DNA of 64,000 bases from Butyrivibrio sp. (GTDB lineage Bacteria; Bacillota; Clostridia; Lachnospirales; Lachnospiraceae). Of this stretch, positions 48,988 through 64,000 are shown in pieces (positions within the stretch are counted from its first letter, which is position 1; every line of letters begins with the position of its first letter). The translations under genes were made by a program, and so were the position numbers. The notes beneath the pieces are model-generated. The model was given only the letters and a program-made list of their open reading frames with translations, was not told the origin of the DNA and ran no database searches. The DNA is taken from the NCBI GenBank assembly GCA_015056585.1, contig SVFZ01000120.1:6397-70396 (forward strand), in the 5' to 3' direction.

Positions 48988-49040
48988 AAATCCATCGAAA
49001 GTATAGAGAATATGTCATACTTCGATGGATTTTTCTTTTT
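48988..49040 (+). terminator. Intrinsic terminator upstream of Tad promoter
   Basis: AAATCCATCGAA...TTCGATGGATTT then TTCTTTTT. Confidence 0.7.
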
Positions 49041-49264: not shown

Positions 49265-49525
49265 ATGACAGAAATGTTAAACGCACTTGATGCAAAATTA
49301 TTCATCGCAAAGACACGTACAAAAGAGTTCTTCGAGGATCTGAGAGACGGAGAGTATGGCGTATCAGCAGTTATCGCTACAGTTATCCTTGTAGCCATTG
49401 CTCTTGTACTTGCCATTGCATTTTGGAAACAGATCGCAGCCACATACAATAAGATCGTAACTCAGATCAACCAGAATACAACCATTGATACTAAAGAAAT
49501 CAAGGGACCTAGCACAAATCCTTAA
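49265..49525 (+). CDS. Flp-like major pilin (no Glu+5)
   Basis: 86 aa, acidic leader ending G then VSAVIATVILVAIALVLAIAF; first gene of Tad locus, AGGAGG RBS. Confidence 0.75.
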   Translation: MTEMLNALDAKLFIAKTRTKEFFEDLRDGEYGVSAVIATVILVAIALVLAIAFWKQIAATYNKIVTQINQNTTIDTKEIKGPSTNP

Positions 49526-50706
49526 TGAATATGGCAGACGACAGATATGAGGAAAACTTAATATCTGACCGGCAGATCATATTAAATGGGCAATATAAAA
49601 TAAACAAAATACTAGGACGGGGCAGCCAGGGCATGGTGTATGAAGCATCAGACATGGTGCTGGGAAACACAGTAGCCGTTAAGGAGCTGACCCGTCTTAG
49701 TGATAGGAATTACTTTAAAGAAGAGGCCAGAATACTGACCAGATTCAGCAGTGCTCCCGATATTGTCCATGTTTACGATTACTTTGAGGATAATGGCTCT
49801 TTTTACTACGTTATGGAACTACTGGAGGGTGCAACACTTAAAGACCATATACTCAGTGCGAAGGCTAAGAATATGTTTTTTTCCCTGGAAGCTGCAAAAA
49901 AGGTGGTTGTTCTTATCCTGAATGCTCTGTCAAAAGTGCACAAAGCGGGAATCATCCATGGAGATGTTAAGCCAAGTAACATTGAAGTGTATAAAAACGG
50001 TACAATAAAGCTCTTCGACTTCGGATCTGCAAATTGCATAGGCGACAGTAGAGGAATGTTAAATACCGTTACACCAGTATATGCAGCACCTGAACAGTAT
50101 GATGTACAGGCGGTTTCTCCGTCTGTGGACATCTATGCTACAGGTGCTATTTTTTATGAGCTGTTATCCTGCAATAAGATCCCGCCGGCCTATGAAAGAA
50201 CAGGGACTAGTCTCCCTCTTGTCAGCAGCTTTAATGCGAAAGTTCCCGCTGACATAGCGCATATCATCGATAAAGCCCTTTCTCTTGACGTAAATAAGCG
50301 CTTTAAGAATGCAGAGGATTTTCTTGACGCTTTAGGTGCAGATATTTCCGGTTTAGCTGTTTCTGAAAGTGTCATTGAAAATCTAAGGAAAGAGGCTGTT
50401 ACAGGTGATGATCGCTTGCAGCTAAGCATCGGAACTCTTTTGGATGGAAGATATGAGATAAGAAAACTTGAGTTTAAAACAAAAGAAGCTCTTATCTACA
50501 GGGCATTTGACCATATTCTTTTAAGACATCTTTATCTGGAAGAATATTTTCCTGAAGGCTTTACTCAGAGAGAAGAGGGATCGGATTATCTGAAAACTAT
50601 CGATATAGAGCATATCTATGCTCTGAGAAGCAGTGAAAAGAACAAGTATTACGGCGCATTTTTGGAGAATAAAACTGTCTATACAGTATTGGAGTTTTGT
50701 GTATGA
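49525..50706 (+). CDS. Hanks-type Ser/Thr protein kinase with a C-terminal degenerate second N-lobe
   Basis: GRGSQG, VAVKE, HGDVKPSN, DFG, TPVYAAPE, DIYATG; no TM or PASTA. Confidence 0.9.
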   Translation: MNMADDRYEENLISDRQIILNGQYKINKILGRGSQGMVYEASDMVLGNTVAVKELTRLSDRNYFKEEARILTRFSSAPDIVHVYDYFEDNGSFYYVMELLEGATLKDHILSAKAKNMFFSLEAAKKVVVLILNALSKVHKAGIIHGDVKPSNIEVYKNGTIKLFDFGSANCIGDSRGMLNTVTPVYAAPEQYDVQAVSPSVDIYATGAIFYELLSCNKIPPAYERTGTSLPLVSSFNAKVPADIAHIIDKALSLDVNKRFKNAEDFLDALGADISGLAVSESVIENLRKEAVTGDDRLQLSIGTLLDGRYEIRKLEFKTKEALIYRAFDHILLRHLYLEEYFPEGFTQREEGSDYLKTIDIEHIYALRSSEKNKYYGAFLENKTVYTVLEFCV

Positions 50707-51740
50707 TAACTGAAAGCAAATTAAGTATTGCCATTGTTACTGCAGATGAAAGCTATGTAAGAACCTTTTCCGAGGCTTTGAGAAAGGACAAAGATATTGT
50801 AATATCATCTTTTTCTTCTTCCAAAAAGCTTATGGATTCAAATATGTTCTTTCAGATTATTTTTGCTGATGAAGCTGTCTTTGAGGAGGACCTTGTAAGC
50901 AGATGCATATCGCTGATCATGCTTTCTGAGGATGTGGAAAATGCTAAGGAAACTGAAGGCGTAAAATGCATCGACAAGTATAAGAGAGTAGATTCTCTCT
51001 ATAGATTTGCTCTGTCTGATTATGCAGAAAAAAAGCAAAAGTCCCTGGACTCCAAGAGAGCATATGTAAAGGCGGTATATTCGCCTGCCGGCGGTTGCGG
51101 GGTTTCAACTATTGCACTGACTCTAGCTTTCAGAGCTGCAAGGCTTGGGCTTAAGACTCTTTATCTGAATCTTGAGGATGTTCCGACGCAAGGCTTTCTT
51201 GTTCAGGATGAAGCAGGTATCAAGGGAATTTCGGCTTTGGCTGCTGCTTTGGATGAAAAAATCGATATGAATGCCAAGATAGGGTCACTTCTTCAGAAAA
51301 AAGAAGAAGATCTCTACTGTTTTGGCAGCTGGGAAAATTTAAGCGATGTAAGAGCCATGAATGCAGAAGATATCGAAAAAATGATTACGGTCCTTTCAGA
51401 TAACGGGAATTTTGATTTTATTGTAATTGATATGGAAAATTCTCTTACGGACAAGACAGTAAAAATTTTTGATCTTGTGGATGAAATTCTTATGGTTTCA
51501 ACTGATGCAGATACAGCTCTTTATAAATTGAATGCACTTTTGTCTAATCAGTTTATCGCCAATAGTTTCTTAAGGAAGATAAAAGTAGTAGTAAACAAAT
51601 ATCAAAATGGCAGGGAAATTGAACTTCCTATTTCGGAATTCGGAACCATTCCGGAGTTGACACAGATGAGCACAGGGCAGATTGTTTCATACCTTTCAGT
51701 ATCCCAGGACTTTTCATATCTGGCCTCAATGCTGAAGTGA
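50703..51740 (+). CDS. CpaE/TadZ-like receiver + ParA-type ATPase
   Basis: VYSPAGGCGVST deviant Walker A, LYLNLE, FIVIDM. Confidence 0.8.
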   Translation: MITESKLSIAIVTADESYVRTFSEALRKDKDIVISSFSSSKKLMDSNMFFQIIFADEAVFEEDLVSRCISLIMLSEDVENAKETEGVKCIDKYKRVDSLYRFALSDYAEKKQKSLDSKRAYVKAVYSPAGGCGVSTIALTLAFRAARLGLKTLYLNLEDVPTQGFLVQDEAGIKGISALAAALDEKIDMNAKIGSLLQKKEEDLYCFGSWENLSDVRAMNAEDIEKMITVLSDNGNFDFIVIDMENSLTDKTVKIFDLVDEILMVSTDADTALYKLNALLSNQFIANSFLRKIKVVVNKYQNGREIELPISEFGTIPELTQMSTGQIVSYLSVSQDFSYLASMLK

Positions 51741-51782
51741 TCGATCAGATAAAAATGTCTGATAAACAGGAAGAGAGAAGCT

Positions 51783-53054
51783 ATGAGTAATCTTTTTAAT
51801 GATGAAGTACAAAAAATCAGAGAACTGGTAGTAGAAGATCCCAATTATTCCAAACTTGGTGAGGAAGAGCTCAAGGACAGGATTGAGATAATGGCAAAAA
51901 AAAGGCAGGAGATAGCCTCTGGTGAGGAAGAGGCCTCATCCTACTATGGTGCCCTGGACTTTAAGAGCAGAAAAATCCTTGTAAATACCGTTTACGATTC
52001 CATAAGAGGTCTTGGAATCCTAGGTAAGATCATAGCAGATAAGTCTATCACTGAGGTTATGATCAACGGCTATGACAATATTTTCGTTGAGAGAAACGGA
52101 AAAGTTGTCAGGATAGAGGAGTCCTTCGAAAATCAGGAACAGTTCAGAAATATCATCTCGAGGCTGGTTCAGGCCATGGGCCGAAGCGTAAATGAATCCA
52201 ATCCTATTGTTGATACGAGACTTGAGGACGGATCCCGTGTAAACGTTGTTCTAAATCCAATAGCTCTGGATGGCCCCATCGTTACCATAAGACGATTCCC
52301 TGAAGAGGGTATGACCATACAAAAGCTTATCAATTACGGGTCAATTACCGAAGAGGCTGCTGAGTTTCTTAGAAAGCTGGTGTATGCCAAGTATAACATT
52401 TTTATCAGCGGCGGTACCGGAAGTGGTAAGACGACTTTCCTTAATGCCCTGTCAAATTATATTCCATCTGATGAACGTGTTATCACAATCGAGGATAGTG
52501 CGGAGCTTCAGATCAGACATATTCCGAACCTGGTAAGGCTTGAAACCAGAAATGCCAACTCTGTAGGTGTAGGTGAGATTTCAATGAGGGATCTTATCAA
52601 AGCTTCTCTTCGAATGAGACCTGAGAGAATTGTAGTAGGTGAGGTTCGAGGCGGTGAGGCTCTGGATATGCTTCAGGCCATGAACACCGGTCATGACGGA
52701 TCTCTTTCAACAGGACATGCAAATTCAGCATATGATATGCTATCCCGTCTTGAGACCATGGTGCTCACTGGAGCTGCCCAGCTTCCACTGGCAGCCATAA
52801 AAGCTCAGATAGCATCAGCTGTCGATATAATCATCCACTTATCAAGAATGAGAGACGGTTCCAGAAAAACCGTACAGATCACAGAGGTGGTGGGAATGAA
52901 GGACGGAGAAATAGAACTTAATCCTTTATTTGAATTTAGAGAGGACATGAAGAAGACCAAGATCGACAAGGTCGTGGGTAGGCTTGAGAGAACTGAAAAT
53001 GAAATGGCTCATCCTGATAAGTTTATAGCAAAGGGTGTGTACGAGTATCTGTAA
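51783..53054 (+). CDS. tadA: Tad pilus assembly ATPase (CpaF)
   Basis: ISGGTGSGKTT, TIEDSAEL, LRMRPERIVVGEVRG, MNTGHDGS. Confidence 0.95.
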   Translation: MSNLFNDEVQKIRELVVEDPNYSKLGEEELKDRIEIMAKKRQEIASGEEEASSYYGALDFKSRKILVNTVYDSIRGLGILGKIIADKSITEVMINGYDNIFVERNGKVVRIEESFENQEQFRNIISRLVQAMGRSVNESNPIVDTRLEDGSRVNVVLNPIALDGPIVTIRRFPEEGMTIQKLINYGSITEEAAEFLRKLVYAKYNIFISGGTGSGKTTFLNALSNYIPSDERVITIEDSAELQIRHIPNLVRLETRNANSVGVGEISMRDLIKASLRMRPERIVVGEVRGGEALDMLQAMNTGHDGSLSTGHANSAYDMLSRLETMVLTGAAQLPLAAIKAQIASAVDIIIHLSRMRDGSRKTVQITEVVGMKDGEIELNPLFEFREDMKKTKIDKVVGRLERTENEMAHPDKFIAKGVYEYL

Positions 53055-53076
53055 TTTGTGATTTTGGGAGAAACAT

Positions 53077-53823
53077 ATGCCTATTTATTACGTTAGTAAC
53101 ATGACAAAAATTCATAAGCTGGCCGTTTTTATCATTTCTGCACTGGTGCTTGGATTTTTGGTGTTTATGTTTTATCACCTTATCTTTGTCAGTATTCCTG
53201 TGGGGATACTTTTGGGAGTGCCGGCAGAAAAGCTTTATGAAAGGCGGCTTATAAAACAGAGGCAAAAGAAGTTCAGAATACAGTTCAAGGACTTTCTTGA
53301 GTCCATGGCGGTGGCTGTAAGAGCCGGTAACGTAGACTATCAGGCCATAAAATATGCCAGAACCGATCTTTCACTTATATATAATGAGACCTCAGACATA
53401 ATCATGGAGATTGACAATATCATCAATAAATACGAGAAGGGTGGTATCAAGATCTCGGAGCTGTTCAGGGACATCGCTGACAGAAGCGGCGTTGAGGATG
53501 CAGCAGATTTTGCATCAGTCTATGAAGTTATCGAGGGAAAGAGTGACAGATTCGAAGAGATTCTTACTCACACAAGAGACGTAATAGCTGAAAAGTGTGA
53601 GATAGAGCAGGAAATTGAAACCGTAATTACTGAAGCCAAATCCGAGGCCTACGTAATGTTGGTAATGCCATTTATTATCCTTGCCATCATAACTGTGGCA
53701 GGTGGAGGGCTTATGGATTCTCTTTTTACAACTTTCAATGGAAGAGTCGCTGCCACCATTTCTATGATACTTATTTCCATTGCTGCGACGGTAACAGTGC
53801 TTACCGGTAACGTAGAGGTTTAA
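53077..53823 (+). CDS. tadB: Tad inner-membrane platform protein B
   Basis: T2SS-F domain (FKDFLESMAVAVRAG), C-terminal TMs, position after tadA. Confidence 0.8.
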   Translation: MPIYYVSNMTKIHKLAVFIISALVLGFLVFMFYHLIFVSIPVGILLGVPAEKLYERRLIKQRQKKFRIQFKDFLESMAVAVRAGNVDYQAIKYARTDLSLIYNETSDIIMEIDNIINKYEKGGIKISELFRDIADRSGVEDAADFASVYEVIEGKSDRFEEILTHTRDVIAEKCEIEQEIETVITEAKSEAYVMLVMPFIILAIITVAGGGLMDSLFTTFNGRVAATISMILISIAATVTVLTGNVEV

Positions 53824-53868
53824 ATTTTTTAATAGCTGTAACAAAAACAGTGGATCTGTGAGGTGACT

Positions 53869-54927
53869 ATGATCATACTTATTCCGGCGATACTTGCCAC
53901 CATTTCGGGAATAATATTTGTGTTCCTTCTTCTGTCTGCAGGGGATGAGATTGAGAGTACATTAAGAGACTCTCTGATAGAGGACTACGACAGAAGAATA
54001 CAGCAAAATGAGGTGAAGATTGTTCTGGCTGAAGAATTTTTGAAAAAGAGCCATCAGGAGAAAAACCACATTGAGAACCTCAAGATAAAAAATATGAGGT
54101 CCCAGGTGAAGGAAGACCGAAAGGCCCTTAGCGCTCTCGAAAACGGAAAGGTAGACATCACCTATACGAATTCCATAGTAGGTTACAGGATCATGCAGCT
54201 TCTTAATTGGAATGCATCCTATCCGGTGGTATTAAATCTTATAAGAAGGTGTACCAGATTTATGAACAGGGGAGAGGCTGTAAATTATGCATACCTGACT
54301 TTGTCAAAGCTTCTGGGGAATGCTGTTTTTGGCTTTTTCTTAAGCTTTTCCGCTGCCACTTTAGGATATGGTCTTGGACTGGGAGTAAGGGCCGTGCTTA
54401 TTGGATTTATCCTCTTTGTACTGGTACTTGTTTTCGGATATCTACCGCTTGATTCAGTACGAACCACTCTGGACAAAAGAGCTGCTGAAATAGAAAAAGA
54501 ATTTCCGCAGGTAATGTCTAAATTAACTCTTCTTACAGAGGCAGGAATGGAAGTAAACAGTGCCTGGGAACTTACCAGCAAGGATGGAAAGGGAACCTTA
54601 TATGAAGAGATGGCACTGGTTACTTTGGGACTTGCCAATAATGAAAAGCCTATGGAAGCCTATTCATCCTTTATTCAAAGATGCAGCTATGCCTATACAT
54701 CAAAGCTTGCAACCCTGATCATGCAGAATCTCTATAAAGGAAATTCTGAGATTGCAAAGCAGTTCATGCAGCTCAACTTTGAATGCTGGAACGAGTACAG
54801 AAATAACGCCCAGAGAATGGGAACAGCCCTTCAGGGCAAGCTTTTTATTCCTACAATGATGTCTTTTGCAGCCCTGCTTATTATGCTGCTTATGCCAATC
54901 ATGACAGGACTTACTGCATCCTTCTGA
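53869..54927 (+). CDS. tadC: Tad inner-membrane platform protein C
   Basis: EFPQVMSKLTLLTEAGM, KLFIPTMM. Confidence 0.8.
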   Translation: MIILIPAILATISGIIFVFLLLSAGDEIESTLRDSLIEDYDRRIQQNEVKIVLAEEFLKKSHQEKNHIENLKIKNMRSQVKEDRKALSALENGKVDITYTNSIVGYRIMQLLNWNASYPVVLNLIRRCTRFMNRGEAVNYAYLTLSKLLGNAVFGFFLSFSAATLGYGLGLGVRAVLIGFILFVLVLVFGYLPLDSVRTTLDKRAAEIEKEFPQVMSKLTLLTEAGMEVNSAWELTSKDGKGTLYEEMALVTLGLANNEKPMEAYSSFIQRCSYAYTSKLATLIMQNLYKGNSEIAKQFMQLNFECWNEYRNNAQRMGTALQGKLFIPTMMSFAALLIMLLMPIMTGLTASF

Positions 54928-54937
54928 GGTAGTGCCT

Positions 54938-55579
54938 ATGATCAGATTATTTTTAAAAAAGGAAGACGGCGCCTTTCAGATACTTCAGGCGGCCATAATA
55001 TATCCAATCTGTCTGTTTATCGTAGCTTCTTTTACCATAATTTCAGTGTATATAGCCCAGAAGGCAAATCTTCAGTCTGCTGTGGATATGGCGCTGATTT
55101 ACTATAAGAATGACTATTCGGATACCTATGTAAAAGCGAAGGATAGCAGCAATATAAGCCTAAATAACAATCAGGCCTATTACTCCAAAGGCAAGATTAC
55201 CAGTCCCTATAGATTTTTTAGCTTGGAGTTCAATAAAAAAGGGGCAGAGGCTTATCTAAAAAAAGCTTATGATCACGTTTTTATCACCGGTTCAGACAAG
55301 ATAGATGTAAAAGTGGAAACGGAAAATTATGTATGGAATAAAGATGCCTATATTGTAGCAACCATGCAGATTGCGCCACAGATAAACTTAAGGATGATGG
55401 GACTTCAGGTTGGTCCAATCACGGAAATAAAGGCCAGCGGTATGGTAAGGCTCATTGACGGAGATTTGTTTGTGGCAAATTTGGATTTTATCGCAGATCT
55501 GGTATCCAATACAAGTTTTGGCAGTAAAATAAGTCAAATTTCAACAAAGATTAAGGAAGCCTATGGTAAGTATTTTTAA
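54938..55579 (+). CDS. TadE-like minor pilin
   Basis: KKEDG|AFQILQAAIIYP prepilin-like N-terminus. Confidence 0.65.
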   Translation: MIRLFLKKEDGAFQILQAAIIYPICLFIVASFTIISVYIAQKANLQSAVDMALIYYKNDYSDTYVKAKDSSNISLNNNQAYYSKGKITSPYRFFSLEFNKKGAEAYLKKAYDHVFITGSDKIDVKVETENYVWNKDAYIVATMQIAPQINLRMMGLQVGPITEIKASGMVRLIDGDLFVANLDFIADLVSNTSFGSKISQISTKIKEAYGKYF

Positions 55580-58052
55580 TAAAAAACTATATAAGGGACA
55601 AAAGGGTTCTGTTTCGATAATGCTGGTTATAATAATGGTGCCGCTGCTTCTTTTATCCAGCTTTCTTGTGGATGTGATCAGGGTAAAGAGCTATAGTCAG
55701 GATGCTCTTATGGCGGCAGATAATTATGCGGAGGGATATCTTGCGGAGTACAATAACCTCCTAAAGCAGCTCTACGGTCTTTACGCCGTTTCAAATTCCA
55801 CCGCCGGGAAAGCGGAGATTCAAACCTATCGTAATGTTGTTCAAAACAAGACTTTCTCAGCAGAAGGCGGAAGCTTTACCCCTTACACAGGCCTGAATAT
55901 AGACTTTGATGTCAAAATGGTTTCTGATTCAACCTTAAGTCACAGGGAGGTCATGAGGACTCAGCTTTCTGACTTTATGAGATTTCGTATTGCTCAGATG
56001 CTTCTTATGGATGGAGAGGAAGTTATAGGCAATCAGTCTGATTCTAAGGAGACGACTAATATTGCCGACAAGGCAGAGATTCTGGATGCCAAGATGGAAT
56101 TTGACGAAAAAAATGCCGACTGCCTAAAAGATATTTTAACTCTCTATGATAAACTGGAAAAATTCCATGATCTGCAGGACCTGGACAATGACATGAAGAA
56201 GGCGCTGATTGATGGTGCCGATGAATTTGCACAGGTTGCTAAGACCCAGATTGAAGCGGAGAAAGCCAAGGAGGCTGAGGAATACCAAAAGTGGCAGAAG
56301 GAGAATGAGGGCAAGGCGGATAAAGACAAATCAGAATTCTCAGGGCTTAGTAAAGATGATAAGGCAAAGCTTCGAAAAGACAACGATGTAGAGACGAAGT
56401 TTGATGAAGCTATCGGAGGTATTCAGGATACTCAGAAGAAGTACAACGAAAAGATGGATGAGCTTTCAACTATTCTGAGCGATATAAAATCCTCCACTAA
56501 AACTGTTATTGATAAGCTTAAGGCCATGGAAAAGGCCAGGGACAAGCTATTTAAAAAGCTGGATGAATATAAAGGGACAGATACCAATGTTATCCAAAGC
56601 ATGAGAAATAACGCCAACAAGGCTCTTGAAGACTATGGCGCTTACGGAGGAAAAAGTTCCAGCGAGATATTAAAAGATCTTTCTGACAGGCTTGAAAATG
56701 ATATAGGCATTCCTGACAAGATAAATGACTATTTGAAGAAAGCCTATGAGAAACTAAATGATGATAAGAAAAAATTTGTTGATGCTGATATAGATGAGGT
56801 CCTGGACGGCAGCGCTTTTCAGCCTATAAAGGATATTCCCTGGGAGACAGTTGAAGCTACTATATCTACATCCACGGTATATCATGAAGCAGATAAGAAT
56901 CTTTACGAGAGACTTAAAAAGCTCCATGACGCTTATTCGGGAATGACCTCCGATGAAGCAGCTAAAAAGATAAAAGATGCTACCGATAAGCAAAATGAAG
57001 CGGAAAAGAAACTAGAGGAGTTGATGAAGGGCGATAAGCCTGACAAGAAGGCCAGAGATATCCCTAAAAGTCTGGGGAGTAGTTTTGGGGATGATGAAGA
57101 TTTTGCTCTCAGCCTTGGCCTTGGAAGTATGATAAAGGGGCTTATTAAAAATGGTTCTTCATTGTTTAAAACTTATGATGAAGGCGCTAAAGGATGGGGG
57201 AAAGCCCAAATCAGCAGGGTTATAATTCCGTACTATGACTTTGGAATGTTCACCTGTAGAACGACAGGCAAGAAACTGGAAAAGAATCAGCAGAATATAA
57301 GTCTTACGGGTCTTGTGCAAGATGGCAGCAATCATTGGATGTACGGAGCTGAAATAGAATATATCCTGTGTAATCATAAGAAGGCTCAGGCAAACTTAAA
57401 TGAAATGCGAAACAGGATAATCGTTGCAAGGCTCATACTAAACTATTTTGCTTCATACAGTGTAAGTCCTGTTAATGCTGTTATCCAAGGTTTGGCCACA
57501 GCTGCAGCTGCCCTAACTTTAGGAGCAGGATACGCCATTGTGGATCAGGGGCTCAGGATTGCTGTAGCCGTCGCAGAAACTGTTATGGACTGGGATATTC
57601 TTACTGATGGGGATAAGATATGCTTTGTTAAAACCTCCATAAAGGAGATGAGTGCTATTAGTGAGCTTGGGAAGCTTCTTGGCAAGGATTGGAGCGCCAG
57701 CAAATCCGAGAAGAATGGCATAAAATGGTTCTCTTACATAAAAATATGCAAGGTATTTATGTACGTCTTTTTAGACCCGGATACTATAGTTGACAGAACA
57801 GCCAATCTCATTATGGTGAATTCCAATTATATCATTATGGGAGAAAATGCCTTTAAAAACATTAGTGGTAAGGGTGCTCTTAAGATCAATTTTGATACTT
57901 CCTATACAGCTGTCGAAGTTACCGCAAAAGTAAACTCCAGGAATGTGGTTATGAATACAGGCTGGCAGAGATGGGTTTCTCCGGGTACGAGCACTGCGAT
58001 AAACAATATTTTCGGAAGAGAGTATAGATATACGGTTATAAGAGGGTATTGA
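55563..58052 (+). CDS. Large TadG-like (DUF5702-type) pseudopilin with long coiled coil
   Basis: QKG|SVSIMLVIIMVPLL; LYGLYA; AEIEYIL; D/E/K-rich helical middle. Confidence 0.7.
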   Translation: MVSIFNKKLYKGQKGSVSIMLVIIMVPLLLLSSFLVDVIRVKSYSQDALMAADNYAEGYLAEYNNLLKQLYGLYAVSNSTAGKAEIQTYRNVVQNKTFSAEGGSFTPYTGLNIDFDVKMVSDSTLSHREVMRTQLSDFMRFRIAQMLLMDGEEVIGNQSDSKETTNIADKAEILDAKMEFDEKNADCLKDILTLYDKLEKFHDLQDLDNDMKKALIDGADEFAQVAKTQIEAEKAKEAEEYQKWQKENEGKADKDKSEFSGLSKDDKAKLRKDNDVETKFDEAIGGIQDTQKKYNEKMDELSTILSDIKSSTKTVIDKLKAMEKARDKLFKKLDEYKGTDTNVIQSMRNNANKALEDYGAYGGKSSSEILKDLSDRLENDIGIPDKINDYLKKAYEKLNDDKKKFVDADIDEVLDGSAFQPIKDIPWETVEATISTSTVYHEADKNLYERLKKLHDAYSGMTSDEAAKKIKDATDKQNEAEKKLEELMKGDKPDKKARDIPKSLGSSFGDDEDFALSLGLGSMIKGLIKNGSSLFKTYDEGAKGWGKAQISRVIIPYYDFGMFTCRTTGKKLEKNQQNISLTGLVQDGSNHWMYGAEIEYILCNHKKAQANLNEMRNRIIVARLILNYFASYSVSPVNAVIQGLATAAAALTLGAGYAIVDQGLRIAVAVAETVMDWDILTDGDKICFVKTSIKEMSAISELGKLLGKDWSASKSEKNGIKWFSYIKICKVFMYVFLDPDTIVDRTANLIMVNSNYIIMGENAFKNISGKGALKINFDTSYTAVEVTAKVNSRNVVMNTGWQRWVSPGTSTAINNIFGREYRYTVIRGY

Positions 58053-58053
58053 T

Positions 58054-58806
58054 TTGTTTAAAAAACTAAGGAAAACGGAAAGCGGTATGATGACCATTGA
58101 AGCCGTAATTTCACTTATCGGCTTTACACTGGCGGTTGTTGCCGTAATCAATTTCATGAATATTTTTGCTCTTCATATGAAGGTGCAGTATGCCCTTAAT
58201 CAGGCGGCCCATGAGGTGGCAGCCATGTCTTACCCCTACGTTCTCATAAACGGAAAGGCTGCTTCAAGAAAGCTTGCAAAAGATGGTGGGAAGTACGCAA
58301 AGCCTTACAAAGAAGGCTGGAGTTCACTGGAGGATATCATGAGCATTTTTTCCGGGAAAAAACCCAGTGATGTTTCCGGAGATTTTAACAATATCGGAGA
58401 AATGCTCAAGAACCCTCAGAACATCTTAAAGGCCATGATCCTTTATGGAGCAAATGCAGGTCTTGACTATGTTAAGGGGCAGGTTGGAAGACTATTTGCC
58501 AATATAACTGTGGAAAAATATCTGGCGGAGTACGATTCTTCGGGGAAACAGACAGTTTCAGCCGATGAATATCTTAAGAGGAGAGGCGTGGTAAAGGGTT
58601 ATGACGGCATGACCTTTAATGGCTCGGAAATGTACAGCGGAGATAGCAACTATATAGTATTCAAAGCCACCTATGAAGTGGATATGAAGCTTTTCATGCC
58701 TCTGGTAAAAAATCCTACCCTCAAGGTAGTTCAATACGGAAGTGCCATGGGCTGGCTTGATGGCGACGGTCTGTACAGATCTGATTTCCCGACGACAAGC
58801 TATTGA
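58054..58806 (+). CDS. TadE-like minor pilin
   Basis: ESG|MMTIEAVISL with Glu+5; TTG start. Confidence 0.75.
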   Translation: MFKKLRKTESGMMTIEAVISLIGFTLAVVAVINFMNIFALHMKVQYALNQAAHEVAAMSYPYVLINGKAASRKLAKDGGKYAKPYKEGWSSLEDIMSIFSGKKPSDVSGDFNNIGEMLKNPQNILKAMILYGANAGLDYVKGQVGRLFANITVEKYLAEYDSSGKQTVSADEYLKRRGVVKGYDGMTFNGSEMYSGDSNYIVFKATYEVDMKLFMPLVKNPTLKVVQYGSAMGWLDGDGLYRSDFPTTSY

Positions 58807-58858
58807 TGGAGAAAAAATATTTGCTACTGGAACTATTTAGACTTTAAAAGGAGAAGTT

Positions 58859-59515
58859 ATGGAAATAGTACTTGCAATTATGGGGGGAATTATAGTTTTG
58901 GTGCTGGCAGTTTTAGCAGTTTTTCTTCTAAATCAGCTGGCAGGAATAAACCTTGAAACAAAAGCAACTGTTTTTGTTAAATCTAAAAGTGCATATATTT
59001 TTTGTGCTATAGCGGCTGTGAGCGGTTTTGTGCACTACTATATAGGGCGGGACTATCATGAGCCAGTGGAGTTTGTGATGGATTTTATAATCCTTGCAGC
59101 TATGGCAGGACTTTCTTTTTCCGACTGCGCAAACAGAAAGATTCCCAACAGGTTTCTTTTGGGACTTTTAATTGCCTGGATCGTAATAAATTGCGGATAC
59201 TGCCTTTATGATATGGAAAGTGGCTTTAGTCTTATTATTGGAGGCTTTAGCGGTGCTCTAATATCCGGTGCTGTTTTCCTTCTATGCTACATCATAGTAA
59301 GAGGGCAGCTCGGAGCCGGAGATGTGAAGATGGCGGCAATTCTTGGACTTTACCTTATGGGAGACAGGATAGTTACCGCACTGATATTCGGAATATTTAT
59401 AAGCGCCATCTATGCGCTGGTTATGCTGATTGCAAAAAAGATGACTTTTAAGGACACGATGCCTATGGCGCCATTTCTTTTTATAGGAACAGTAATTGTT
59501 GTTGTACTTAGCTGA
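58859..59515 (+). CDS. A24 prepilin peptidase (TadV/CpaA type)
   Basis: SFSDCANRKIPN and GAGDVKM catalytic Asp motifs; PMAPFL. Confidence 0.88.
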   Translation: MEIVLAIMGGIIVLVLAVLAVFLLNQLAGINLETKATVFVKSKSAYIFCAIAAVSGFVHYYIGRDYHEPVEFVMDFIILAAMAGLSFSDCANRKIPNRFLLGLLIAWIVINCGYCLYDMESGFSLIIGGFSGALISGAVFLLCYIIVRGQLGAGDVKMAAILGLYLMGDRIVTALIFGIFISAIYALVMLIAKKMTFKDTMPMAPFLFIGTVIVVVLS

Positions 59516-59542
59516 TCACTTATGTTTGTAACGGAGAAGGTT

Positions 59543-60919
59543 ATGAAGAAACGGAAAGTAATAATTTCAGTAGTCAGTGTACTTGTCATAATACTGGTAT
59601 GGTTTGGAACCGTAGCAGCTCTTAATGATAAGAAGGATGTGATGAATCAGGCAGAGCTGGTAAGGAAAGCCAATGAATTCAGAGATAAGGGATTGTATGT
59701 CAGATCCTATCCACTCTACGAAGAGGCATTGAGTATCAATACTGAAAATAACAGACAGGTCATGGAAGAACTTCTTAGTGCTTACTATTCGGATGGAAGA
59801 TACGGGGATTATACAATTTATATAGATAATCTTCCCATGACAGGAGACAAACCCTCGCCGGACAATTATGTTAAGTATGCAACAATACTAAATAGGCAGG
59901 GAGATGTTACTAAGAGCATTGAAAAAGCCTTCGAGGGACTTGCCGAATATCCGGAATATACGCCTTTAGAGGACTTTATCCTGGAATACAGATATTCCTT
60001 CTATGTATACAAAGTTGAAGCTACAGAGGCCGGGAATTTCGTGAACAAAAGCCTTGACATCCCTGTTATTAATACGAATGGGGAGTGGGAGTTTTGCAGT
60101 GCTGACGGTTACCTTTCCTATGATACCGGTTATGAGGCCATAAGAGAGTATTCGGCAAAAGGATTCTGTCCGGTTAAGAAAGATGGTCAGTGGATCATAA
60201 TAGATTCTCGATCCAATAAGTACGCGATAGATGAAACCGGTGTTGATGACGTTTTTGCAACGGATGAGGAATATATCGTGGCGGAAAAGGACGGGAAGAT
60301 GGGTTACTACGATATAGACTTTAACCTCATCGGGGATCAGACAATACATGATGAACTATCCTTAGCTTCGAATGATTACGTAATAGCAGCAAGGGACGGA
60401 ACCAAATGGATGATCCTCAATACTGCTTTTGAAAGGGTAAACGACACCGATTATGAAGATATAGCCATAAATTACAGTCATTTCCCAAGCGAGGGAGGTG
60501 CCATGATGCTAAAAGAAAATGGGAAATGGTATCTGTGTGATATCACAGGAAAGCATATCAGTGAAGAAGGCTTTGCAGATGCCAAAGCCCCGGAAGAAGC
60601 AGGAGCTCTTATAGCAGTTGCCAATGAAGAAGGCAGGTGGGGCTTCATTGATACCACAGGGAAACTTGTCATTGATTACAAATATGAGGACGCACAGTCC
60701 TTTAGCTGTGGCCTTGGAGCTGTCATGGAATATGATGAATGGGACTATATAGATTCAAGTGACACAGTCAGGATAAAGCTTGGAGTTGAAGAACTCAGAC
60801 CATTTCATGATGGTGTCGCAGTTGCAAAAAACGGCGGGAAGATTCTTATTATAAACCTGTATTTTACTGAAAAAGACATTGAAGATGCGAAAGCGGGGGC
60901 AAAAAATGAAGACGTATAA
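59543..60919 (+). CDS. Membrane-anchored WG-repeat protein with N-terminal TPR-like helices
   Basis: N-terminal TM; repeats such as GRWGFIDTTGKLVIDYKYEDAQSFSCGLGAV. Confidence 0.8.
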   Translation: MKKRKVIISVVSVLVIILVWFGTVAALNDKKDVMNQAELVRKANEFRDKGLYVRSYPLYEEALSINTENNRQVMEELLSAYYSDGRYGDYTIYIDNLPMTGDKPSPDNYVKYATILNRQGDVTKSIEKAFEGLAEYPEYTPLEDFILEYRYSFYVYKVEATEAGNFVNKSLDIPVINTNGEWEFCSADGYLSYDTGYEAIREYSAKGFCPVKKDGQWIIIDSRSNKYAIDETGVDDVFATDEEYIVAEKDGKMGYYDIDFNLIGDQTIHDELSLASNDYVIAARDGTKWMILNTAFERVNDTDYEDIAINYSHFPSEGGAMMLKENGKWYLCDITGKHISEEGFADAKAPEEAGALIAVANEEGRWGFIDTTGKLVIDYKYEDAQSFSCGLGAVMEYDEWDYIDSSDTVRIKLGVEELRPFHDGVAVAKNGGKILIINLYFTEKDIEDAKAGAKNEDV

Positions 60920-62363
60920 TTGTAATTATGTAAAGGACATTGAAGGCGAGTATCTGGATGTTGTTTTAAAAAATCTTACGAAGGAAGATGAAGTATCTAT
61001 CAAAGTTCTGGCAGAGGACACACCGGCATTCATGTTGCCCTTCTCGAGTTTTCGCCATGACGATGAGTACAGACTTCACTACACAACCAGTGCTCACGTG
61101 GCTCTGACCTACAGACTGGAAGACTTTTTCTCCACAAGAGAAGACTACATCAATTTAGGACTTCAGATAGTGGCACCATTTTCCAAGGTAATCGACTGGA
61201 TGACGGATTACCACAGTCTTGTTGTAAGCCCTGATTATGTATTCCAGAATAAGAAAACCGGAAAGATTTATTATGTGGTTGCACCTTGTCAGGAGTATAA
61301 ATCCACAGATGAGGAAATCATAGAGTTCTTAAAGGTGGTGCTGACTGCTCCAAGAACAGACGACTCGGCTGCTCCTTTCCAGAATACAATTTTCAGGTAT
61401 TTCAATGAGGACAATGTAAACTTTGAGGAACTCTATCAGCTCTTTGCTGAGGAAGGGGCAAAACTTGAGGGAACACCTACTGTAAATAAGGCTGTAGCTC
61501 CAAGAGTAACAGAGGCTCCAAGACCCGTCGGTGTAAATACTGCTATGCCGGCGCAGCCTGTCACAGCTCCTGCAAAGCAAGCGGAAACTCCCGTAAGGAC
61601 ACCTTCTTCAAATCACATCTTTGCGGATGCAATTAAGCCGGTAAGTGGACCGTCCTTCCTTAACACAAATCCTATGGATGCCAGAAAGGAAAACAAGGGC
61701 GGATCTTTTGCAGATAAGCAGGCAGAGAAGGAGAGAAAAGAAGCGGAGAAGAAAGCCGAAAAGGAGAGAAAAGAAGCCGAGAAGCAGGCTGAGAAGGAAA
61801 GAAAGGCAGCTGAGAAGAAAGAAAAAGGCGGCGGATTATTTGCCGGCTTTGGAAAGAAAGCTGAAAAGGCAGTGGAAGCTCCTGCAAATCCGGAGCCTGC
61901 AACTACGCCTGCTGCATCGGAAGGCTTCGATCCATTTAGCGAGGAAGAGGTTCAGAAGAATATTGAAGATCATTCAGATGAGACTGTTTACGCAAGAGAT
62001 GCCCTTGGAGGTCTGACAATAGGCAACAGGCTTCGCCTTGTGGATTCACCACTTCCGGGAGCTCCTATAATGGTAGATCTCAATTTCGAGAAGCAGCACA
62101 TCATTATCGGAAGGCTTACAAATAACGGACCGGGATGTGACATCAGATTCCCTGATTCCTTCCAGAGTATAGGAAGACAGCATGCGTGGATAGAAAAGGA
62201 TGAAGCCGGACACTTCATGCTGGTGGATCTGGATTCTGCCAACGGTACTATGTTAAACGGCCATCAGCTGATTCCGAATCAGAAATACTCTTTAAGAGAT
62301 GGAGATGAGGTTGTATTTTCCAAGATCCAGCCGGTTAAGTACAAGGTTGAGATAAAAGAGTGA
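60906..62363 (+). CDS. DUF6382-type N-terminal domain + C-terminal FHA domain protein
   Basis: IIGR...SIGRQHAWI...LVDLDSANGTMLNG FHA motifs; AEKERKEAEK repeats. Confidence 0.85.
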   Translation: MKTYNCNYVKDIEGEYLDVVLKNLTKEDEVSIKVLAEDTPAFMLPFSSFRHDDEYRLHYTTSAHVALTYRLEDFFSTREDYINLGLQIVAPFSKVIDWMTDYHSLVVSPDYVFQNKKTGKIYYVVAPCQEYKSTDEEIIEFLKVVLTAPRTDDSAAPFQNTIFRYFNEDNVNFEELYQLFAEEGAKLEGTPTVNKAVAPRVTEAPRPVGVNTAMPAQPVTAPAKQAETPVRTPSSNHIFADAIKPVSGPSFLNTNPMDARKENKGGSFADKQAEKERKEAEKKAEKERKEAEKQAEKERKAAEKKEKGGGLFAGFGKKAEKAVEAPANPEPATTPAASEGFDPFSEEEVQKNIEDHSDETVYARDALGGLTIGNRLRLVDSPLPGAPIMVDLNFEKQHIIIGRLTNNGPGCDIRFPDSFQSIGRQHAWIEKDEAGHFMLVDLDSANGTMLNGHQLIPNQKYSLRDGDEVVFSKIQPVKYKVEIKE

Positions 62364-62375
62364 AAAACAATAAAA

Positions 62376-62402
62376 ACGCCGGTTCATTAAAAGAACCGGC
62401 GT
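62376..62402. terminator. Probable bidirectional terminator
   Basis: ACGCCGGTTC / GAACCGGCGT between convergent genes, A run on the left. Confidence 0.7.
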
Positions 62403-62407
62403 GAAGA

Positions 62408-62878
62408 TTATAGATTATGGATAAGAAACAAAAATCCTATGATGGCAAAGAGTAGCAGATTTACCAGATATGATATCAAAAGCTCTTTTACCAGAGTGGG
62501 TTTCTTGTACGTAGTCCTGATGACAGCTGCGTGCTTTAGGATTTCATAGAAGATGATATCTATGATTAAGGCCATAGCTGAAAAATTAAGGACTGTTGAG
62601 ACTACGGACATAAAAATAAAGACCACAAGTTCCAGGATAAAGTTCCCTTTTGGAATAGGAGTTTTACAGTATCTGCATTTTCCTCCAAGGAAGATGAATG
62701 CAAAAATCGGCACCTGATCTAAAAGGGTAAGCTCATGACCGCAGGAAGGACAGTAACATTTGGAGTCACTGACATTTTTTTCCTGCTGCTGCGAGAGCCT
62801 GAGGATATCTGTGGTGGCGTAGGCTCCAAGAAAATAGAAGGCTATATAGGGTGCTATAAAAGCTAATATATTTTTCAT
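62408..62878 (-). CDS. Stand-alone PilD N-terminal (Zn-binding, DiS-P-DiS) domain protein
   Basis: [12 protein letters not shown]...[21 protein letters not shown]; no C-terminal peptidase Asp motifs. Confidence 0.8.
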
Positions 62879-62884
62879 AACTCA

Positions 62885-62913
62885 ATTATAAGATTACAGC
62901 TTTGTCAGGTCAA
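62885..62913 (-). promoter_or_regulatory. Sigma-A promoter predicting a leaderless transcript
   Basis: TTGACC-17-TATAAT, 6 nt, then ATG at 62878; no Shine-Dalgarno. Confidence 0.65.
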
Positions 62914-62953
62914 AAAATTTTTACATGCAGAGAGTTTTTTCGGGAGACGAAAA

Positions 62954-64000
62954 ATGAGAAGATTAAGGAAATTTTTACCGGCAGTTCTTTCAATAATTCT
63001 TATGCTTCAGGGGGCTTTATTTGCTTCTGTGCCAGTAAATGCGGAAGGAGCGATGGAGATCCTTTCCACTTACTATGTGGATGAGACAAACAATCAGCGA
63101 ATATATCTTTTAAATTCAAATGGCATTGAGGACATAAAATCGCTGGAGCTGGCAGGAGAGGAAATAACAGATTACAGCTTCCTTAGCGCTCTTGAGGCCG
63201 GTGAAAATATCAGAACCATAGTCATGGTGGATAATTCAATTTCCATTAAAAAGCCAAAGAGAACCAGGTTTAACAGTATTGTTAATACTCTGATCGATGA
63301 AATGGCAGAAAATGAAATGATCCGGATAGCCACATTCTCTGAAGAAATCAACTACCTGACAGAGTTTACAACGGATAAAGAGGTGCTGAAAGCGGCTATT
63401 AACGGCATTTCTTACTACGATCAGGAGACCTACTTAACTGATGTTTTATACAGTATCCTTACCAGTGGAGAGATGGATGACTCTGTATTTAACAGGGTTA
63501 TCGTATTTACCGATGGCGTGGACAATAAGCCAAACGGAGTGGGGAGAGAGGTACTTTATGAAGAGATGGCCAATCACCCCCTTCATGTATATTCTGTAGG
63601 TGCCAATGGCGCTGCTCCTGAAAACGAGGCCTATATACAGGGGCTTTTTGATCTTTCAAAGAATACAAATGCAGAGCATTTTCTTTTAGATGATATCGAA
63701 GATGACTCCATAATAACCGAGTCGGTAAAAGAGGATGCGAATTATAAGGTAATAAGTTTTACGCCGCCTTCCGCTGCCATGACAGGTAAAAGTGTCAGCG
63801 GAAAGATAATTGGAGCCGGATCCCAGGAGGGAGTAGAGCTGGAGTATAGCGTCATTCTTCCCTATGTAGAGCCTGAGCCTGAACCGGAACCTGAGCCTGA
63901 ACCCGAGCCTGTTCCGGAACCTGAACCGGAGCCCGAGCCTGTTCCTGAGCCGGAACCGGAGCCTGAACCTGAACCCGAACCTGCGCCTAAGTCTTCCATC
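62954..64000 (+). CDS. Secreted VWA-domain protein with Pro-Glu linker (runs off right edge; not in ORF track)
   Basis: Signal peptide, MIDAS DNSIS, ATFS, VFTDG; (EP)n tract; 349 codons open. Confidence 0.85.
63869..63990 (+). repeat. GA(A/G)CC(N) hexamer repeat encoding (Glu-Pro)n linker
   Basis: Seen directly. Confidence 0.9.

Follow-up and report, generated by a model that had tools for sequence, protein, structure and literature searches.

Among the Firmicutes of gut and rumen, colonisation depends in large part on tight adherence (Tad) pili. One question, raised by the locus described here, is whether the Tad machine of monoderm bacteria can be switched after translation by Ser/Thr phosphorylation. 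The locus begins at position 49,265 of a 64,000-nucleotide stretch of a Butyrivibrio sp. genome (GenBank assembly GCA_015056585.1, contig SVFZ01000120.1), which is here called the window and by whose positions the genes are cited, L004 denoting the contig sequence onward past the window end. An earlier note on this DNA had described a Tad locus with Hanks-type kinase, WG-repeat, FHA and VWA genes, all of which were recovered where it had placed them, on the + strand, by open reading frame (ORF) listing and Pfam and NCBIfam scans. We assign this region, with good support, to a second and rarer type of monoderm Tad/Flp (type IVc) pilus operon, here present in complete form, and argue that Ser/Thr signalling is likely to be functionally tied to this type of locus; that phosphorylation switches pilus assembly is a proposal to which we give roughly even chances.

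Ser/Thr signalling genes in a second type of Tad locus

The family was surveyed in two ways. The Pfam model of DUF6382, a domain encoded at the end of the window operon, was searched in 301 genomes of the family, one per genus, with 20 kb fetched around 60 hits, and a profile of the DUF6382-FHA protein of the second locus type (type 2) was searched in 300 genera, with 40 kb fetched around each hit. The first model matched 291 of the 301 genomes, and in 59 of the 60 regions an ordinary Tad operon ends with the DUF6382 gene, with or without an FHA domain, in the order (A24-like)-tadZ-cpaF-tadB-tadC-DUF5702-tadE-(A24)-DUF6382, the sixtieth region being cut by a contig end. Neither kinase nor PP2C, WG or type-2 VWA genes were found in any of these 60 ordinary regions. 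The genome of the window has itself a second, ordinary Tad operon (contig C85:4380-14030), which ends in its own DUF6382-FHA gene, and to whose products the window proteins are 25-55% identical (CpaF 55%).

Type-2 loci were found in 13 of the 300 genera. Their common order is tadZ, cpaF, tadB, tadC, pilin, pseudopilins, A24, WG, DUF6382-FHA, PP2C, (A24_N), kinase and LRR/VWA proteins, the PP2C and kinase genes standing directly after the DUF6382-FHA gene in 12 of the 13 loci, and the WG gene after A24 likewise in 12 of 13, as well as in L027-L031, L059 and L107. The type-2 architecture recurs in L107, L027, L031, L032 and L059, Oscillospiraceae included, and CpaF-anchored loci of other genomes, among them Faecousia and Oscillibacter, follow the same pattern. 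The locus that holds a 28%-identical relative of the window FHA protein (L107) reads DUF5702, tadE, A24, WG, DUF6382-FHA, PP2C, a kinase with a TPR region (kinase-TPR), a TPR/LRR protein, VWA and A24_N. The hallmarks of the type are well supported: a WG-repeat membrane protein, a divergent DUF6382-FHA protein, a separate A24_N and a Ser/Thr signalling set. The combination of kinase, FHA and WG genes to which the earlier note drew attention is a recurrent one in type-2 loci, none of the 60 ordinary loci having a kinase or a WG gene.

In type-2 loci the kinase-TPR proteins sit in the membrane, with the TPR region outside the cell, and carry a long Thr-rich repeat insert (motifs such as T-x-L-G-D), and these Thr motifs may be autophosphorylated docking sites for FHA domains. 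In a congener (G207) the kinase-TPR gene lies directly upstream of tadZ. Two of these kinases (L107:8278-10662 and L020:6185-8434) have HSD/HGD and DFN instead of HRD and DFG, and their insert, of about 150 residues, follows the APE motif and repeats T-x-L-G-D or T-A-V-L-P.

The lineage of the window departs from this pattern: PP2C and kinase-TPR are both absent, the pilin gene has moved to the front of the operon, and behind it stands another kinase, only about 30% identical to the kinase-TPR family, not orthologous to it and nearer to unrelated tandem kinases. The simplest reading of these gene contents is a non-orthologous replacement, in which the PP2C/kinase-TPR pair would have been lost and the other kinase gained together with a VWA-transmembrane-FHA (VWA-TM-FHA) protein. 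Given the low identity of the two kinases, a kinase has been recruited to type-2 Tad loci at least twice. Since PP2C and kinase genes recur in type-2 loci and are absent from ordinary ones, and since recruitment occurred twice, a functional tie between Ser/Thr signalling and the type-2 Tad machine is likely; and because the usual kinase and phosphatase have been replaced by a different kinase, it can be argued that kinase input matters to the machine. A link between Ser/Thr signalling genes and Tad is thus supported for the type as a whole (12 of 13 type-2 loci against none of 60 ordinary ones), and less well for the particular kinase pointed out in the earlier note, which belongs to a narrow clade and is no ortholog of kinase-TPR.

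The locus in the window

From 49265 to the window end there are 14 genes, 13 on the + strand and one, the stand-alone A24_N gene, on the - strand; three of the 13 encode pseudopilin-like proteins, one of them the 829-residue DUF5702 protein.

49265..49525, +: major pilin, Flp1_like with an archaeal-like class III signal (Pfam Flp1_like 26.5 bits, below cut-off; TIGR02537 18.8 bits)
49525..50706, +: Hanks-type Ser/Thr kinase, soluble, 393 residues (Pkinase E 1.1e-41)
50437..50703, +: within the kinase, C-terminal domain (residues ~305-393), possibly a degenerate second N-lobe (pairwise and phmmer matches)
50703..51740, +: TadZ/CpaE-like protein, receiver-like domain and atypical MinD/ParA ATPase domain (PDB 3FKQ; CpaE_hom_Actino)
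51783..53054, +: CpaF/TadA secretion ATPase (T2SSE E 5.5e-59; TIGR03819 TadA family 313 bits)
53077..53823, +: TadB platform protein (T2SSF 27.3 bits; synteny kept in all related loci)
53863..54927, +: TadC platform protein (T2SSF 17.3 bits, sub-threshold; conserved synteny and tblastn matches)
54932..55579, +: pseudopilin-like orf215 with an N-terminal hydrophobic helix (no Pfam match; position kept in type-2 loci)
55563..58052, +: TadG-like DUF5702 protein, 829 residues (PF18960 E 3.1e-19)
58054..58806, +: TadE-like pseudopilin, 250 residues (sub-threshold Tad/TadE N-terminal matches, E 0.02-0.1; position conserved across loci)
58859..59515, +: prepilin peptidase, A24 catalytic domain only, TadV-like (Peptidase_A24 E 4.2e-10)
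59522..60919, +: WG-repeat protein with an N-terminal transmembrane helix (WG_beta_rep E 9.5e-18)
60906 (or 60879)..62363, +: DUF6382, disordered Thr/Pro- and Lys/Glu-rich linker, and FHA (PF19909 E 2.3e-11; FHA, PF00498, E 6e-16)
62408..62878, -: stand-alone A24_N, the zinc-ribbon N-terminal domain of prepilin peptidase, 156 residues (A24_N_bact E 2.1e-17)
62954..64000, full gene to ~64483, +: VWA-(EP)n-TM-FHA membrane protein (VWA; runs past the window end)

The start of the DUF6382-FHA gene overlaps the end of the WG gene, and the two genes stand as the earlier note had them, a membrane WG-repeat protein followed by an FHA protein. The identity of TadZ is given by a full-length match to the Eubacterium rectale TadZ structure 3FKQ (over residues 6-336, E 3.1e-17); the Walker A sequence of the window protein, AGGCGVST, has no Lys and resembles the atypical CGGVGTST of 3FKQ. 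A DUF5702 gene is found in 58 of the 60 ordinary loci and in every type-2 locus.

The pilin gene is preceded by an AGGAGG ribosome-binding site. Its product, aligned with the type-2 pilins of four other loci, has the motif E-x-G/VS (the slash marks the likely mature end) followed by a hydrophobic helix, and no Glu at +5. Compared with what is expected of a Flp system, a pilin processed at G/XXXXEY and a peptidase for it, the A24 peptidase is there, and the pilin matches Flp1_like only below cut-off, with E-x-G/VS and no +5 Glu. The type-2 pilins at large (window, G128, G294, G089, L020, L018 and L019) share E-x-G/V-S-x-x-(V/I)-A-T-V, again without Glu at +5, and give weak matches to archaeal class III signal models. 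By these signals they appear to stand nearer to the pilins of archaea than to classical Flp. Around the pilin gene, scans for promoters and terminators returned site numbers no higher than in shuffled sequence; a hairpin upstream of it, at ~48990-49035, was seen by eye only.

The prepilin peptidase is split over two genes, the A24 catalytic domain (58859-59515, +) and the A24_N zinc ribbon (62408-62878, -). The latter gene sits between the DUF6382-FHA and VWA genes and has its own promoter-like site, matched at 11 of 12 positions (L004:310-282); a separate A24_N gene recurs in the type-2 loci L107, L109, G128, G294, G311 and G247.

A kinase between pilin and TadZ

The soluble kinase had been reported to lie between the pilin and the CpaE-like gene with a TAATG overlap. 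Read directly, the pilin stop and the kinase start do share TAATG at 49523-49527, and there is a further overlap, the kinase stop and the tadZ ATG sharing ATGA at 50703-50706, such that the kinase is predicted to be translationally coupled on both sides. The protein has no hydrophobic segment. Alignment to StkP places its motifs at G31xGxxG36, K53, E66/67, H145-G-D147, N152, D165FG and A188PE, all invariant in four orthologs, and the Arg of HRD is replaced by Gly (an HGD loop), which makes it a non-RD kinase. With this motif set the kinase looks active, that is, catalytically competent.

The last ~90 residues are as conserved among orthologs as the catalytic domain. A Pfam scan of the C-terminal 104 residues gave no family, and AlphaFold of the whole kinase, with an alignment of four sequences, had a mean predicted local distance difference test score (pLDDT) of 35 and was uninformative on this domain. 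The region matches residues 19-54 of its own protein (E 5e-5) and, in tblastn, the N-lobes of other kinases; an exhaustive phmmer search of 1.8 billion representatives returned 11 hits, of which eight were scanned and six were kinases; two of these six are matched at the same post-kinase position and the others at an N-lobe. Together the matches are suggestive, and only suggestive, of a degenerate second N-lobe that has neither Gly-rich loop nor VAIK Lys.

Orthologs of the kinase fall into four protein clusters, with 98, 95, 74 and 74% identity. One of the 74%-identical orthologs stands in the same pilin-pilin-kinase-tadZ order, and the pilin and TadZ next to it share 65% and 63% identity with their window counterparts. 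The ratio of nonsynonymous to synonymous substitution rates (dN/dS) of the kinase is 0.13, or 0.21 against the 95% ortholog, similar to that of tadZ and the pilin, and is indicative of purifying selection. Since synteny is kept while the pilin and TadZ have diverged as much as the kinase or more, and since its dN/dS is like that of its neighbours, the gene is not a fresh insertion. The nearest non-orthologous relatives (L021, L025, L026; G024, G110, G073) are clusters of two or three tandem kinase genes of 500-740 residues, standing in non-Tad contexts; one of them adjoins an FHA gene.

DUF6382 and the two FHA proteins

The DUF6382 domain was modelled with AlphaFold (AF2) from an alignment of 48 sequences at a pLDDT of 91. 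In a Foldseek search with this model the best PDB match is YukC/EssB (6z0f, E 7e-6, template modelling (TM) score ~0.47); there are 55 PDB matches at E<=1e-3, and among the 50 listed all those below YukC are protein kinases or kinase-like (pseudokinase) domains, the TM-scores being only 0.45-0.54. Nowhere across the 48 sequences is a Lys or an Asp invariant. By its modelled fold, DUF6382 is thus a pseudokinase-like domain, and by its distribution the DUF6382 protein, with or without FHA, would be a general Tad component in this family. A link of DUF6382-FHA to a type VII secretion system (T7SS) was considered and rejected, as an EssC-type ATPase is absent from the genome and both DUF6382 genes lie in Tad loci; a single FtsK_SpoIIIE gene (a 983-residue ORF on C53) was found, near neither Tad locus, and WXG100 proteins were not searched for.

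The second FHA protein emerges when the VWA gene is followed past the window end. The complete gene (L004:351-1880) encodes 509 residues, with a signal peptide, a VWA domain, an EP linker, one transmembrane helix and a cytoplasmic FHA domain (E 1e-10), and scores 38 bits with Yop-YscD_cpl, above the cut-off. The protein, which had been described as secreted, is therefore predicted to be anchored in the membrane by a single pass, and the locus holds two FHA proteins.

The FHA domains were scored at the signature residues Gly-Arg, Ser-x-x-His and Asn. VWA-TM-FHA, aligned to the FHA domains of Ki-67 and Rv0020c, keeps G435-R436, S451-R452-x-H454 (S-R-K-H) and T475, with Ser473 at the Asn position, and judged by these residues it is the strongest candidate for genuine recognition of phosphothreonine. 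The window DUF6382-FHA has G402-R403, H426 and N-G-T, and Gly423 replaces the canonical phosphate-binding Ser. The other FHA domains may bind differently from that of VWA-TM-FHA.

A phosphorylation switch and its alternatives

We propose, at the even chances stated above, that assembly of the type-2 pilus is switched by Ser/Thr phosphorylation. The kinase would be co-produced with the pilin and would phosphorylate Thr residues on cytoplasmic parts of the machine, candidates being the Thr/Pro-rich linker of DUF6382-FHA, the juxtamembrane tail of VWA-TM-FHA, TadZ and CpaF. The FHA domain of VWA-TM-FHA, in which Arg, Ser and His are kept, would dock on the phosphothreonine, and that of DUF6382-FHA may do so as well. 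Docking would link whatever the VWA and WG ectodomains encounter on the outside to the TadZ-CpaF-TadBC platform, which would be recruited or activated. The switch would be reset by PP2C phosphatases whose genes lie on other contigs (C79 and C54). The residues that this proposal singles out are K53 and D147 of the kinase, R436 and S451 of VWA-TM-FHA and R403 of DUF6382-FHA.

Several observations weigh against it. The kinase of the window appears limited to a narrow clade. Word-indexed homolog searches with the kinase and DUF6382-FHA had yielded three to four true orthologs, generic kinase and low-complexity words filling the candidate lists, so that rarity could not be reliably judged from them and was checked by six-frame genome searches; these found an ortholog neither among 60 further species of the genus nor among 150 genera of the family. 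The kinase has the same place in the locus of the 74%-identical ortholog and has no ortholog beyond the clade in these searches. A PP2C gene was sought in the window locus and the remaining 10 kb of the contig and not found, so that inspection of the downstream sequence for a PP2C or further FHA genes, suggested in the earlier note, supplied the second FHA protein and no phosphatase. Nor can the FHA gene at the operon end by itself be taken for a mark of phospho-gating, given that DUF6382-FHA also ends ordinary operons that have no kinase. In the FHA domains of ordinary loci, Lys, Ser or Thr stands for Arg in 47 of 47, with Ser, His and Asn retained, and the type-2 DUF6382-FHA proteins retain Arg and have Gly for Ser in all four sequences examined, the distant L107 among them. 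By analogy with the non-canonical YukB FHA domains, which the YukC pseudokinase binds independently of phosphorylation (PMC9600267), the FHA domains of this family may bind without phosphate.

These points lead to the alternative that survives best, and which we hold unlikely though it deserves a serious hearing: the locus may encode a scaffold and not a switch. DUF6382 and FHA would then be phospho-independent parts of the Tad machine, on the model of the YukC (pseudokinase)-YukB (FHA) pair of the type VIIb secretion system (T7SSb) or the YscD/PrgH FHA ring of type III secretion, and the kinase would only share their transcript and act elsewhere, on transcription factors or general physiology. 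That DUF6382 ends 59 of 60 ordinary operons with no kinase or PP2C nearby, that 14 of the 60 ordinary DUF6382 proteins lack an FHA domain altogether, and that the pockets just described are non-canonical would all be in keeping with such a role, as would the top fold match, to a protein whose FHA partner binds without phosphorylation (PMC9600267), and the score of VWA-TM-FHA with Yop-YscD_cpl. Against a scaffold stand the PP2C and kinase genes immediately behind DUF6382-FHA in 12 of 13 type-2 loci, and the non-orthologous recruitment of a kinase in the window lineage is hard to explain without a functional tie; moreover, neither the Arg nor the Ser that binds phosphate has been lost from VWA-TM-FHA, and the long Thr-rich repeat inserts of kinase-TPR suit FHA docking.

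A further alternative, which we consider improbable, concerns what is built and not how it is controlled: the machine could be a contact-dependent device for effector delivery, killing or secretion, its firing triggered via the kinase/FHA set, in place of an adhesive pilus. The earlier note had put forward both contact-dependent activity and adhesion to fibre or cells as candidate uses. The Kil system of Myxococcus is an FHA-rich Tad-like system (PMC8460266), the same type of cassette accompanies T7SSe, an antibacterial secretion system (PMC11217815), and genes for surface proteins of VWA, LRR and Ig-like kinds accompany the locus. The full gene set of an ordinary Flp pilus is present, however, and toxin, immunity, LXG/WXG and EssC genes are all missing from the locus (with the limit on WXG100 given above), the FtsK-family gene on C53 being the only one in the genome. 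Least probable of all, and by a long way short of likely, is that the kinase is a passenger, a recent insertion of unrelated function such as what is left of a tandem-kinase gene for defence or signalling, caught in the Tad operon by chance, for although it looks like a truncated tandem kinase, has its nearest relatives among multi-copy tandem kinases in non-Tad contexts, forms only four clusters of full-length orthologs and is absent from the 60 congeners and 150 genera, it overlaps its neighbours at start and stop, keeps its position in the 74%-identical ortholog while the pilin and TadZ have diverged as much or more, and has a dN/dS of 0.13, and a kinase is present in nearly all other type-2 loci.

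Returning to the phosphorylation switch, a broader claim, that DUF6382 is an EssB-like pseudokinase serving as a core cytoplasmic Tad component, onto which a portable kinase/phosphatase/FHA cassette shared with T7SSe has been plugged more than once, is one we hold tentatively, at somewhat less than even chances; within it, the window lineage would have used an unrelated truncated tandem kinase and the VWA-TM-FHA receptor. If the switch exists, a whole class of clostridial Tad pili would be controlled post-translationally by Ser/Thr phosphorylation, with a cassette also found on a type VII secretion variant, and if the broader claim is right, the EssB-like pseudokinase-FHA protein would be a general and overlooked component of Tad machines; were both parts of that broader claim to hold, phosphothreonine would gate the assembly of Gram-positive Tad pili upon contact with a surface. 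The window lineage amounts to a natural experiment, in which the usual kinase and phosphatase were swapped for a different kinase. In a literature search no publication came up that connects Tad pili with DUF6382, PP2C or Hanks kinases; what is new here is the kinase-replacement variant, the family-wide result for DUF6382, the pseudokinase fold and the pattern of FHA residues.

Neighbouring genes and phosphatases elsewhere

Downstream of VWA-TM-FHA, L004:1997-4726 (~64600-67329) encodes a surface protein of 909 residues. It has a signal peptide and repeats of the Big_2 and Flg_new families, is anchored in the membrane at its C-terminus, and resembles on a smaller scale the TseI-like giant surface proteins that other loci encode; its gene is closed by a hairpin with a 13-bp stem. 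There follow, in L004:4885-11314, a membrane protein of the HD-GYP type (HD_5) and a 1428-residue hybrid histidine kinase with Reg_prop/Y_Y_Y sensor repeats. These two neighbours may point to control by a second messenger close to the pilus genes.

Outside the locus, the same genome (G000) has two PP2C-kinase gene pairs, at C79:9251-10770 and C54:21684-23217. The C54 pair looks like the housekeeping PrkC/PrpC type, and the C79 pair has a short kinase of 340 residues.

Comparison with known systems

With the ordinary Lachnospiraceae Tad operon the window locus shares the core order tadZ-cpaF-tadB-tadC-DUF5702-tadE-DUF6382, and it differs from that operon in the WG, kinase, VWA and A24_N genes which, like PP2C, the ordinary operon lacks. 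An envelope machine whose assembly is gated by phosphorylation is exemplified by the H1 type VI secretion system (T6SS) of Pseudomonas aeruginosa (cited in PMC8460266), with the kinase PpkA, the phosphatase PppA and the FHA scaffold Fha1, PpkA having a periplasmic VWA domain. That machine is a different one, and in the window the VWA domain is on an FHA protein and not on the kinase. The likeness is a functional one, and in this respect the T6SS pathway and the archaellum network described below are the nearest analogues.

FHA domains have been associated with Tad machines before, in class III CpaF, which carries one at its N-terminus (PMC12019362), and in the FHA proteins of the Myxococcus Kil system (PMC8460266). 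Those systems are diderm, with FHA fused to the ATPase and no dedicated kinase reported, whereas the window CpaF has no FHA domain and FHA is found on separate proteins. Similarly, the type IV filament machine of the Sulfolobus archaellum is controlled by an FHA protein (ArnA), a vWA protein (ArnB) and Hanks kinases (ArnC and ArnD), together with PP2A (PMC6509490, PMC5300886, PMC7472852). The Arn proteins, however, are soluble and act on gene expression and protein levels, and in the window a single membrane protein has VWA at one end and FHA at the other, its gene, like the others, lying inside the pilus operon.

YukC/EssB with the FHA domains of YukB/EssC (T7SSb, 6z0f, PMC9600267) likewise pairs a pseudokinase-like domain with FHA in an envelope-spanning machine of Bacillota. 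In the window a single soluble protein contains both domains, the sequences show no similarity, and the phospho-independence of the YukC-YukB pairing (PMC9600267) sets it apart from a phosphorylation switch.

The closest known cassette is that of T7SSe. The accessory set of the T7SSe/T7SSf systems of Bacillota comprises the membrane Ser/Thr kinase TseD, the PPM phosphatase TseF and the DUF6382-FHA protein TseJ/TsfJ (Garrett et al. 2024, PMC11217815), the only guise in which we found DUF6382 named in the literature. The window encodes a protein of the same DUF6382-FHA family (PF19909 and PF00498 in one chain), and the other type-2 Tad loci have the same trio of DUF6382-FHA, PP2C and membrane kinase, followed by large surface proteins. 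The differences are that the cassette here is on a Tad pilus and not on a T7SS, in a genome without EssC, and that the window locus, in place of the PPM phosphatase and the membrane kinase, has an unrelated soluble kinase at the operon front and the VWA-TM-FHA protein.

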